A stretch of 64,000 nucleotides of DNA. It comes from Leucoraja ocellata. Taxonomy: Eukaryota. Both the position numbers and the translations under genes were made by a program. The stretch is taken from assembly GCA_036785375.1 (NCBI GenBank), contig JAWMAR010000026.1, forward strand, positions 11,904,001 to 11,968,000, given 5' to 3'. Below the pieces are notes generated by a model. The model had not been told where the DNA came from and searched no databases. It worked only from the letters and a program-made list of their open reading frames with translations. Below, piece by piece: positions 53,982-61,921 of this stretch; the first letter of the stretch is position 1, and the number at the start of each line of letters is the position of its first letter.

Positions 53982-54036
53982 ATGGAAATCGGAATAATAT
54001 TTAACTTACTGATCGTCGGTGGGAATATTTACATAG
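53982..54036 (+). CDS. IgSF receptor exon 1, signal peptide
   Basis: [18 protein letters not shown]+G|gtacag; phase 1; 108-nt intron before the V exon. Confidence 0.85.
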
Positions 54037-57000
54037 GTACAGCTTTGTTCATTATTCCATGTGCTTATTTATAAACTAATTGTAAGGTCTATCGTCTTAT
54101 CGTCATCAACTGAATTACCTTTCCTTGACTGTGTTTCCTAACAGGCGGGGAACAGATTTCATACATGGTAGAGCAAGTGCCCAAAGAAGTGGTTTTACTC
54201 AAAGGAGGGAACGTCACATTCTACTGCATATTCCCCATTTCTCAAGACCAATCTTGGGTCAAATGGTGGAAACAGGGCGAGAATGAAAACCAACGTGTAA
54301 GTACCGACGACAGGAAACGTGTTGGCGTGAGAGGTCGAGCAAGCGGGTACTTTGAGTTAAAGAATGCAAAGATCCAAGATTCTGGAGTGTATCGGTGTTC
54401 GGTGACGCGTAAAGGATTGGTTCCAAGAAATTCAACCGGATCACGTCTAATAGTATATGGTAAGCGAAAAATAATTGGAGAAGGAGGTATTTATTATGGA
54501 ATATAATAGGTGGGAATACCGATTCACCATGTCGTTTAATACGTTGTGTGTATATTATGATGAACATAAGGGTGGAATGGTAACAGAAAATAATTGAGGG
54601 GTGAAACATAATGTAATATATATCAAATATAACATGCGGTAAAACCCATTCACTGTGAAGATATATTTTGATACTTTTGTCGATATTATGTTTAATAAAT
54701 ATGTATTATTATTGTATCAAATCTCTGCGTGTAACAGAAAGGTTGAAGCTCCACGCTGCGTTTCTCAATTCACACAATGTTTGACCATCTTCGCTCTTCT
54801 CGTCAACACTGGTTACGTGTCTACAATACTCCAACGCGGTCTGACCATTGCCTTATGAAGCATTACATCCCTGCTTTTTTTTTAAACATTCCAATCCTCT
54901 CTCAATAAATGCTAACGTTTTTAGTTACCGTATGTTGGATTTTAAAGAGGTAGGTAAACATCTGTTATTGTATTGGGAGATTATGATAAAGCAATGTCAG
55001 TAGACAGTAGACAATAGGTGCAGGAGTAGGCCATTCGGCCCTTCGAGCTAGCACCGCCATTCGCTGTGATCATGGCTGATCATACACAACCTGCCATCTC
55101 CCCATATCCCTTGACTCCGCTATCTTTAATAGCTGCATCTAACTGTCGCTTGAAAGCATCCAGAAAATCGGCCTCCACTGTCTTCTGAGGCAGAGAATTC
55201 CACAGATTCACAACTCTGGGTGAAAAAGGTTTTCCTCATCTCCGTTCTAAATGGCCTACGCCTTATTCTTAAAATGTGGCCCCTGGTACTGGACTCCCCC
55301 AACATCGGGACAGGTTTCCTCCCTCTAACATGTCCAATCCCTTAATAGTCTTCTATGTTTCAATAAGATCCACTCACATCCTTCTAAATTTCAGTGTATA
55401 CAAGCCCAGCCACTCCATTCTTTCAACATATGACTGTCCCGCCAGCCCGGGAATTAACGTTCGTCACAAAAATAGTGTCGAAATATTACCAGAGTAAAAC
55501 ACAAATCCTACCACCTATTCACATTACAATAGCAGAAGACAAGGAAATATATGTCTCAAGAACATTCACTTGGAAACGTTTCTTATCATAAACACGGTCT
55601 GAACACATTGCTACTTGGAGTCTCAGAGTTGCACAGCACAGGAACAGCCTTCCGGTCCTCCAAGTCCATCCGACCTATTTTTCCATCTACTCAAATTCAA
55701 TTTACCATCGTTAGGTCCTTATCTACTACGAGTTGCCTATTATAATGTCTGTGAATCCCCAGGGCCTGATGGTCGGCATCCCTGGGTACTTACGGAAGTG
55801 GCTCTAGAAATCGTGGACACATTGGTGATAATTTTACAATGTTCTATAGACTCAGGATCAGTTCCTGTGGATTGGAGGTTAGCAAATGTTATCCCACTTT
55901 TCAAGATAGGCGGGAGAGAGAAAACGGGGAATTATAGACCAGTTAGCCTGACATCGGTGGTGGAGAAGATGCTGGAGTCAAAGATAAAAGATGAGGTAGT
56001 CGCACATTTGGATAACAGGATCAGTTCGAGTGAGCATGGATTTACAAGGGGAAATCATGCTTGACTAATCTTCTGGAATTTTTTGAAGATGTAAGTAGGA
56101 AAATGGACAAGGGAGAGCCAGTGGATGTAGTGTACCTGGACTTTCAGAAAGCATTTGATAAGATCCCACATTGGAGATTAGTGGGCAAAATTAGGGCACA
56201 TGGTATTGGGGGTAGAGTGCTGACATGGATAGAGAAGTGGTTGGCAGACAGGAAACAAAGAGTAGGGATTAACGGGTCCCTTTCAGAATGGCAGGCAGTG
56301 ACTAGTGGGGTACCGCAAGGCACGGTGCTGGGACCACAGCTATTTACAATATACATCAATGACTTGGATGAAGGGATTCAAAGTAACATTAGCAAATTTG
56401 CAGATGACACAAAGCTGGGTGGCAGTGTGAACTATGAGGAGGATGCTATGAGAATGCAATGTGACTTGGACAGGTTGTGGGAGTGGGCAGATGCATGGCA
56501 GATGAAGTTTAATTTGGATAAATGTGAGGTTATCCCCCCCCCCCCCCCCCCCCATCCCCTGCCCCACCTCCCACCCCCTCCAAGGACAACCATGACGGGA
56601 CAATCACAACATTCGTCCAATGTTGAATCCAGAACTGCTGCGAATACTGTAAATGTTGATTTACGCTTTTGGTAAAGTTCTTACATAAGGTACTACCATT
56701 TATATTGTATATCCTCGCCTATGAAGGTACGCCTGAAAGAGTTGATATAGTTCGCAGGATGTAATGTGTTGGTAAAACAACATATTTTCCTCACCATTTT
56801 CTGCGCCCCTGCTCTGCTTCTTCTGCAAAACCGACTTGCTTTCTCACTTGATCATTAAAGTCAAGTCAAGTCAAGTTTCTTTGTCACATACACATACGAG
56901 ATGTGCAGTGAAATGAAAGTGGCAATGCTCGTGGACTTTTGTGCAAAAGACAAACAACCAAACAAACTATAAACACAATCATAACACACATATTCTTTTG

Positions 57001-60619: not shown

Positions 60620-60665
<46 letters not shown>

Positions 60666-61921
60666 ATTAATTTGCTCCTATTATTTCTGCAGTTAATGCT
60701 TTCGCCTTCCACATTAGACATGCTCTGGGCTTTCTGGTGCTCCTGATCCTGATTGGTGCCGTTATTGGGACGCACTGTCAGTTGCTGTTTGATAAAAGGT
60801 ACGTTATATATGGAAAAAATATGTTTGTATAATATTTCATGGAATTAGGAAAGATATTTGCGAAAGTTTGTGTATGGTGCAGAGGATCATAAATATAATT
60901 ATAATTTAAATCTGAAGGACTTGGACTGTGATGTAAATTCTTTGAAATGCCAATATATTCTTGGCAACTTAGCATGAAGAATTATACACAGCGTTGACTG
61001 TAAGAGGAACTGGTTGCAAGTAAATTCACTATAAGCATCGGTGAATGCTCATGTTGTTTATTTTGGTTAAATCCAATGAGCTGGCAAGGAATCCAAGAGC
61101 CGGTAAGATCACGCTCCCTCTCGTGCAACTTTTGTCTTCAATCATTCTTCGCCGGTAATATTCAATATTGAAGAGTGTTGAAGCGCAGATATTTTGTTAA
61201 ATGCAAAGAGTAAAGTTTCATGTTTCTCTAAATTTGCATCCAGACTGATGAAACATGCAAGTTATGCCAAGATGCATATTTTCCAGGAGAAGATGCGAAT
61301 ATCCGTCGTCTTTTCACTTTCAATTTGAAATTATTTCCCGAAGAATAGGCGATAATAGTGTAAAATTACCTGCAAAATCCTTATCAATTGTTTCTATGTT
61401 CCTCAATTGCATTTACACCTAAAATGCAGAGATAAAAAAAACGGCATAAATAAAATAAAACTTGAAAGAAATTCAGGTTCAGCCAGACCCAGATTCCTCC
61501 CCCCCCCCCCCCCCTTGCTCCCTCTCAATCCGGGTTTTCAACCAGCAATGAAAAATGATGACTTCAGTCTCTACAAATTTTACTTCATGCGATGAGTCCA
61601 CTCACTCTTTTTTAAACTTAAAATACTTACGGTTTCAATCCCTTTGGAGTAAATGGGATAAAAGTAAACTTTTGTCTTTACTGAAATCGTACCCATTTAT
61701 AAATGTGATGTTATTTATAACTGTTGAATATATTTCATCCGCCTGAGAAAGTATCCTTAAACTATCTTCTATAGAACAAATGTTTGCATAATTAAATTGT
61801 GCCGATAGTTAGCAAGGTTTTCTCCACCCTCTCTTGTTTGTGCAGGGTCCATGTAAGAAAAAGCCATCAAATAGAGAGTGTTGGAAACCTCAAGCAGGAT
61901 CAACCAAGCGCCACCCAATGA
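53982..61921 (+). CDS. Ig-superfamily type I membrane receptor, leader-VJ-C1-TM-cytoplasmic (non-rearranging antigen-receptor-like; NCR3/SIRP/VJC1-like); exons 53982-54036, 54145-54459, 58685-58996, 60693-60798, 61846-61921 (287 aa)
   Basis: GT..AG introns with phases 1,1,1,2, typical of IgSF genes; continuous 864-nt ORF; V-set and C1-set motifs plus a hydrophobic TM. The last exon is the least certain. Confidence 0.88.
54145..54459 (+). CDS. IgSF receptor exon 2, VJ-type Ig domain
   Basis: aacag|...VEQVP...GGNVTFYC...VKWW...DSGVYRC...[10 protein letters not shown]|gtaagc; B-strand Cys, C-strand Trp, DxGxYxC and a J-like G strand in one exon. Confidence 0.92.
55002..55460 (-). mobile_element. 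CR1 3' end
   Basis: agacaataggtgcaggagtaggccattcggccc terminus, shared with copies at ~27430, 30862, 43153 and 62817. Confidence 0.85.
55750..56533 (+). mobile_element. CR1 RT fragment
   Basis: [40 protein letters not shown]. Confidence 0.9.
56858..58370 (-). mobile_element. Rex1/Babar LINE, 5'-truncated, in IgSF intron 2
   Basis: 337-aa [17 protein letters not shown]...LQFAY...[10 protein letters not shown]...[10 protein letters not shown]...KFADD...YLGV; (CTTGA)n tail. Confidence 0.92.
58685..58996 (+). CDS. IgSF receptor exon 3, C1-set Ig domain
   Basis: [19 protein letters not shown]...GLYMVSSSL...[16 protein letters not shown] acceptor (58685 or 58688); donor gtacaa. Confidence 0.92.
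59480..59700. repeat. G/A-rich low-complexity tract
   Basis: Nearly pure purine strand with many GGG runs. Confidence 0.9.
59870..60315 (-). mobile_element. Old CR1 fragment in IgSF intron 3
   Basis: Decayed ORF2 3' region (aatgaaggcaaacacgccacacgccttctttaccact; acatccttcctgtaatgaggc). Confidence 0.65.
60621..60663. repeat. (CA)n microsatellite
   Basis: About 21 CA units ending ~30 nt before the TM exon acceptor. Confidence 0.98.
60693..60798 (+). CDS. IgSF receptor exon 4, transmembrane
   Basis: ttctgcag|(V)[34 protein letters not shown]+AG|gtacgt. Confidence 0.88.
61846..61921 (+). CDS. IgSF receptor exon 5, cytoplasmic tail
   Basis: Strong pyrimidine tract ..ctctcttgtttgtgcag|(R)[27 protein letters not shown]; phase-compatible with exon 4. 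Confidence 0.65.

Follow-up and report, generated by a model that had tools for sequence, protein, structure and literature searches.

The stretch of Leucoraja ocellata DNA analysed here (64,000 nucleotides of contig JAWMAR010000026.1, positions 11,904,001 to 11,968,000; hereafter the window) carries, on its plus strand, a gene for a receptor with one immunoglobulin (Ig) V domain, one C1 domain and a transmembrane (TM) segment. This gene is real: its exons are joined by GT-AG introns and their frames are open. The leader exon (53982..54036) encodes a signal peptide in 18 codons plus one base, ends in phase 1 and aligns with the N-terminus of the stingray proteins P0001 and P0002. It is followed by a single exon (54145..54459) for a short VJ-type (variable-joining) domain with Cys27, Trp40, the motif D-x-G-x-Y-x-Cys84 and a J-like G strand, by the only receptor C1 exon in the window (58688..58996), of the C1-set type with extra cysteines at exon residues 19 and 100, the latter in the stalk, and by a TM exon (60693..60798) with a phase-2 donor, the encoded helix having an arginine at its outer edge. 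A candidate last exon (61846..61921), entered through the best acceptor 3' of the TM exon, would add 25 more residues, none of them tyrosine, before a stop at 61919-61921. With this exon included, the reading frame has 286 stop-free codons; introns 1-3 are all phase 1.

An earlier, sequence-only reading of the window had placed the V, C1 and TM exons at these positions, and the GT-AG junctions, the open frame and Pfam bear it out: the V exon scores 34.1 bits as V-set (cut-off 26), with Ig_3 (37.6) and I-set (32.4) comparable, and the C1 exon 42.6 bits as C1-set (cut-off 21). In alignments, the leader, V, C1 and TM exons are each matched by stingray and horn-shark proteins. Identity to P0002 amounts to 69/103 residues in the V exon and 53/99 in the C1 exon, and a contig of a relative (P0006) has the C1 exon open and 96% identical, while the stalk cysteine is found in just 3 of 66 relatives. 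Judged by a simple splice matrix, the donors of the leader (-0.3) and C1 (0.8) exons are weak and are backed by protein homology only. The TM exon is the only window exon matched by a profile of the family's TM segment and tail, weakly (E 0.26). As for the candidate last exon, it resembles no tail of the family and drew no RNA read; what supports it is its acceptor score (7.6). Immediately upstream of the gene lies a decayed tandem copy (53304..53758, plus strand) of its upstream region, leader, intron 1 and V-exon start, in pieces about 75-82% identical by blastn and pairwise alignment. This copy has no ATG, is frameshifted, and is a sign of local birth-and-death.

The V and J parts of the receptor are not split. 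A strict scan of the whole window for recombination signal sequences (RSSs) found none at the V exon and one imperfect site 10 kb away (44325), and a relaxed scan of 52000-64000 gave two matches (59289 and 63873), none of them at the V exon, against a mean of 0.73 and a maximum of 4 in 30 mononucleotide shuffles. These scans agree with the sequence-only reading, which had seen no such signal there. With no V/J split and no flanking RSS, the feature of Ig and T-cell receptor (TCR) rearrangement, a rearranging receptor is ruled out. The description of a one-exon V domain with a J-like G strand holds for the unsplit VJ exon, and only in part for the strand: the J-like GxG is present in 93 of 96 family V domains, and the window copy has Ser for the first Gly and keeps the second.

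The V domain is predicted to be short and to lack strands C' and C'', resembling the shark VNAR. Its two cysteines enclose 57 residues, within the range of 54-60 (mode 59) among 94 family domains measured and below the 66 of SIRP-alpha, as taken from alignments, and the C strand has a 2-residue deletion. The AlphaFold model of the V domain has a predicted local distance difference test score of 88, and C' and C'' are missing in both AlphaFold models. The family V profile finds its best single-domain match in VNAR (56.1 bits), and VNARs, of which we take PDB entry 7fbj to be one, occupy most of the first 16 ranks of a Foldseek search; identity between VNAR and the family is 17-23% and the fold scores are tied with other Ig domains. 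When the whole model is submitted to Foldseek, the matches include TCR beta and light chains, with identities of about 20% and a high root-mean-square deviation.

On sequence comparison, sharks, rays and chimaera share a multigene V-C1-TM family, to which the window gene belongs as one of its copies. The gene is not a single relic predating the recombination-activating genes (RAG), of the kind brought up in the sequence-only reading, being one of many tandem-type paralogues. Searched with the V exon, a set of 51 candidates yielded 5 matching proteins, which come from Hypanus and Heterodontus and are 56-66% identical. An exhaustive V-exon search was followed through the best 150 of 271 matches, and 30 chosen ones that were named comprise 21 chondrichthyan and 9 reptile multi-V proteins. 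A profile built from 26 relatives and two window exons collected 66 proteins, 64 of which are named as coming from sharks, rays or chimaera or bear elephant-shark accessions; a lamprey BCAM-like protein was also found (E 7e-15). Since the profile search requires words shared with chondrichthyan queries, it says little about bony vertebrates. Distinct V domains number 11 by label in horn shark, 9 in elephant shark and 6 in sevengill, with 41 unlabelled. Because the entries of a species sit mostly on equally long contigs (99.65 Mb in horn shark, 66.5 Mb in sevengill; two in the catshark S. torazame) and the elephant-shark identifiers are consecutive, we infer a single cluster per species. Nearly all relatives have one C1 domain; it is duplicated in P0043, and P0011 and P0026, which may be relatives or isoforms, are V-only.

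Phylogenetic trees of both domains place the gene among the batoids, and with the profile search they sustain the earlier suggestion of a chondrichthyan, poorly characterised, innate-type receptor family. The window V domain, 57-67% identical to its nearest family members, falls in a batoid clade of 5 rows (Narcine, Hypanus, Mobula) with a Shimodaira-Hasegawa-like approximate likelihood ratio test (SH-aLRT) value of 99, and the C1 domain groups with Hypanus, Mobula and Hemitrygon (SH-aLRT 94), the stingray and devil-ray paralogues being the same as in the V clade. These trees were quick and built on few columns, and 51 of 120 forks of the V tree are open. Certain subfamilies of the V tree unite chimaera and shark genes (SH-aLRT 97 and 93), which indicates that the expansion of the family is old; as far as these groupings show, the family predates the chimaera-elasmobranch split.

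The gene models of these relatives are already public under automatic names. Those given by RefSeq conflict with one another (SIRP-alpha-like, SIRP-beta-like, tapasin-related, B7-H6-like, CD276, Ig lambda-like, MHC class II-like), SIRP-alpha/beta-like being the commonest. No description of the family was found in the literature searched, and Ohta 2019, Dornburg and Yoder 2022, Fu 2019 and Kinlein 2021 may mention it. The nearest non-chondrichthyan V-exon matches among those named are lizard, snake and turtle receptors (P0061, P0074, P0085, P0111, P0120, P0128, P0129, P0136, P0152) which have 2-3 short V domains and a tail with Tyr motifs and go by the automatic names titin-, hemicentin- or pIgR-like. 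Among bony fishes, the consulted part of the supplement to PMC10751288 lists SIRP-alpha-like, tapasin-related, CD276 and B7-H6-like names among C-type lectin natural killer (NK) receptor genes on reedfish chromosome 12, 7.3-12.5 Mb; this cluster is a possible counterpart of the family.

The tails and TM segments of the relatives point to a likely paired system of activating and inhibitory receptors. Most complete relatives have tails with immunoreceptor tyrosine-based inhibitory motifs (ITIMs); an ITIM-like motif is present in 43 of 77 TM-bearing entries, and at least two in 29 of them (isoforms not collapsed). In the TM alignment, one column at the outer edge holds Gly in most ITIM members and an arginine in a subset of entries; the window arginine stands in that column. 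The two features tend to exclude each other: among 74 distinct entries, 12 have Arg without ITIM, 2 both, 36 ITIM without Arg and 24 neither (Fisher p=0.0026), so that Arg is absent in 36 of 38 ITIM-bearing entries and ITIM in 12 of 14 Arg-bearing ones. This count restores P0003, P0054 and P0075 after a hydrophobicity cut, removes two duplicates and leaves out entries without a TM segment; its firm side is that Arg is rare in ITIM-bearing models. Traced on a 63-row tree of ectodomains, the Arg state shows 10 changes, and over 8 independent pairs ITIM loss accompanies Arg 5.8 times on average and the opposite never occurs (sign test, median p 0.03, range 0.016-0.125). Near-identical ectodomains can carry opposite tails, as in P0002 (Arg, short) and P0168 (ITIM), and also in P0053 and P0043. 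Thirteen of the 24 entries with neither feature belong to one subfamily with basic, Tyr-free tails.

A further observation concerns a subfamily (P0052, P0138, P0179-P0185, P0187, P0191, P0198, P0205, P0070) with a WW-I/V-Y motif before the TM segment and a Cys-rich juxtamembrane segment. Its tail is basic, has neither Tyr motifs nor the Arg, and is conserved from chimaera to rays. Such proteins may be ligand-like or form a third signalling class.

Owing to the arginine at the outer edge of its TM helix and the absence of an ITIM from the window, we regard the window copy as probably an activating member of this likely paired, germline-encoded family. No ITIM exon was found in the window, and the motif is missing from the spliced and the read-through tail alike. 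As far as the consulted parts of PMC6514059 and PMC10679719 go, the TM arginine of NKp30, NKp46 and LILRA binds FcR-gamma or CD3-zeta. The V domain of the window receptor would bind a cell-surface ligand, and its arginine would by analogy pair with the aspartate of one of these adaptors, which carry immunoreceptor tyrosine-based activation motifs; the receptor so paired would trigger an NK-like or myeloid cell. Inhibitory relatives would recruit SHP-type phosphatases through their ITIMs, and the diversity of the receptors would arise by gene duplication and loss rather than by RAG.

A number of observations weigh against this interpretation. The arginine lies at the edge of the helix and could be a mere boundary residue. 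Two Arg-bearing entries (P0075 and P0200) carry a Tyr motif, and the tree-based test omitted P0003, P0054 and P0075, one of which is a counter-example, and has a p range that crosses 0.05. Many short tails come from automatic models; if these are truncated, as they may be, the class without ITIM would be overcounted. In devil ray and stingray, the nearest relatives (P0168, P0196, P0203) bear ITIMs, and tail exons of the window gene could lie past base 64000. Nor was spliced RNA seen. In four RNA runs from four studies (1-25% per run; match of tissue and species unestablished), the mean depth in the V-exon bin was 0.13, 0.06, 0.51 and 0, the C1, TM and last-exon bins had 0, and no receptor exon-exon joint was among the 15 of 187 joints listed; nearly all RNA reads are drawn by the LINE (long interspersed element) and SINE-like (short interspersed element) repeats of the window. 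The sequence-only reading had looked to RNA for a check on the gene, and what these runs, of unknown tissue, returned was no spliced transcript.

The RNA result, the phase-2 donor of the TM exon and the decayed duplicate next to the gene keep alive another explanation, namely that the gene is a decaying, formerly inhibitory member that lost its tail through a shifted splice donor and is now silent or a non-signalling decoy. Isoform pairs of the family imply a phase-1 donor at this point (Gly in P0034, Asp in P0160 at the junction), and the missing first Gly of GxG and the shortened C strand may be further marks of decay. However, all exons are open, all canonical Ig residues are kept, the terminal branch of the V domain (0.16) is as long as the median of the family, the C1 exon is open in a relative too, and the arginine stands in a column common to other short-tailed members. 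On balance, decay is unlikely. Less likely still is that the gene belongs to the ordinary inhibitory members and has its ITIM exons past the right window edge. Such a gene would fit the ITIM tails found in the nearest relatives whose models are complete; the window extends only 3.2 kb past the TM exon, much of this being repeat, and homology lends no support to the modelled last exon. Nevertheless, nearly all ITIM-bearing entries lack the arginine of the window copy, and behind a phase-2 donor tail exons of the family type would be out of frame. Of these readings, an activating receptor is the one we prefer.

Several other features of the window were noted. A glutathione S-transferase gene on the plus strand (10304-20820), which from its motifs we take to be rho-class, has coding exon 1 at 10304-10471 (Pfam GST_N_2, E 4.9e-5), exon 2 near 10721 and its last exon near 20750. 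It is the only other host gene found and a possible synteny marker. Pieces of LINE reverse transcriptase lie at 49568-52071 (+), 56034-56540 (+) and 57186-58370 (-), two of them within the V-C1 intron, and SINE-like copies at 54999-55320 and 62816-63153. An assembly gap of 140 N spans 2351-2490.

Unsplit VJ-C1 genes are, in the consulted part of PMC12227049, the kind of gene looked for as a precursor of antibodies and T-cell receptors, and little is known of the innate paired receptors that sharks and rays have. Taken singly, the window gene is an ordinary copy; what is of interest is its family, large, old and hidden in RefSeq under conflicting names. If the paired reading is true, the family offers a directly testable candidate for activating and inhibitory receptors of shark NK or myeloid cells, and a fresh set of taxa with which to date the origins of SIRP, PRARP and VNAR. 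We consider it distinctly unlikely that the boldest combined view is correct, according to which this is an ancient, unnamed cluster of a dozen or more paired receptors with a VNAR-like short VJ and one C1 domain, forms a lineage of its own apart from SIRP, provides sharks and rays with a main NK or myeloid system, and has a common ancestor with the IgNAR variable domain.

How the family relates to SIRP, to Ig and TCR chains and to VNAR can be weighed from several sides. The family V+C profile scores Ig lambda (71.5 bits), SIRP-alpha (71.4) and Ig kappa (71.2) alike, and because of this tie we file the window gene neither as SIRP nor as TCR. A true orthologue group of SIRP in cartilaginous fish is possible, though we would not put it at even chances, and it would be compatible with an activating window copy. 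It agrees with the commonest automatic names, with the top language-model clusters for P0004 (SIRP-alpha-like, 0.97 and 0.96) and with the C1 start VPPT shared with SIRP-alpha domain 3 (47.7 bits, compared with 42.2 for UrIg2 C3). In the C1-only profile, however, SIRP-alpha D3 (36.4), UrIg2 C3 (36.1) and C-lambda (36.0) are tied. Activating SIRP members such as SIRP-beta1 have a mid-helix Lys for DAP12, whereas activating members of the family would use the edge Arg. As the family also has one C1 domain rather than two and a V domain about 7 residues shorter, we do not grant it SIRP membership. A germline-joined Ig light chain or TCR chain is largely refuted and hardly credible. Light chains do figure at the head of the V+C scores, some relatives are auto-named Ig lambda-like, and elasmobranch lambda light chains are germline-joined, according to the part of PMC12227049 at hand; against this stand the TM exon, the ITIM tails of relatives, a V domain predicted without C'/C'', the roughly 20% identity to Ig and TCR chains in structural alignment and the lack of RSSs and J segments. 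For the same reasons of predicted V shape, tied profile scores and ITIM tails in most complete relatives, the special tie to TCR chains put forward in the sequence-only reading is not supported. Direct descent from the unsplit VJ-C1 gene into which the RAG transposon inserted, or from the surface receptor that gave rise to the short VNAR domain, is doubtful. The unsplit VJ exon with its C1, the subfamilies common to chimaera and elasmobranchs, and the VNAR profile and fold matches speak for it, and an origin of IgNAR from a cell-surface receptor has been proposed (PMC4622739).

Among known non-rearranging systems, NKp30/NCR3 shares the unsplit VJ domain and a TM Arg for CD3-zeta or FcR-gamma (PMC6514059, as consulted in part). 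In contrast to the family, with its C1 domain and ITIM-bearing members, NCR3 has a single Ig domain and is MHC-linked in sharks, judging from the consulted part of the PMC10751288 supplement, whose table of the sawfish major histocompatibility complex (MHC) chromosome lists NCR3-like genes and no SIRP-like names. With a C1 exon between V and TM, the window gene is ruled out as NCR3. UrIg and UrIg2 are likewise elasmobranch VJ + C1 genes that do not rearrange, and UrIg2 is a top match of the C1 exon, with a rank that sums over three domains; they differ, in the portion of PMC12227049 available, in having 3-11 C domains, Fc-like dimers and single genes linked to the MHC or to Ig/TCR loci. One C1 against at least three C domains rules out this identity too. 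VNAR has the same short eight-strand V domain, lacking C'/C'' (predicted in the family), and is a frequent top fold match; it rearranges and is secreted or part of a B-cell receptor, whereas the family does not rearrange. B7-H6 (NCR3LG1) and TAPBPR match the fold within 1 Z unit of unrelated Ig pairs, B7-H6 being the top but tied two-domain match and rank 12 of the C1 profile (50.3 bits). In contrast to the family, both are ligands or chaperones and are not known to have paired ITIM/Arg forms.

PRARP and Xenopus VJC1 combine a VJ-C1-TM layout with tail motifs of the ITIM or immunoreceptor tyrosine-based switch type; the family has both features, and the window copy has the layout without the tail. 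They are small gene sets of bony vertebrates. Both are named in the parts of PMC10751288 and PMC11599192 consulted, and no sequence so named was among the matches of any search made. SIRP itself is like the family in its unsplit, non-rearranging V domain with a J-like strand followed by C1, in being multigene, and in having inhibitory members with repeated Tyr motifs beside short-tailed members with a charged TM residue, although the window copy itself shows no ITIM within the window. They differ in the ectodomain, which is V-C1-C1 in SIRP (PDB 2wng) and has one C1 in the family, and in the cysteine spacing of the V domain (57-59 in the family). In its manner of working, the family would be one more system of the kind represented by SIRP, LILR/PIR and other paired receptors.

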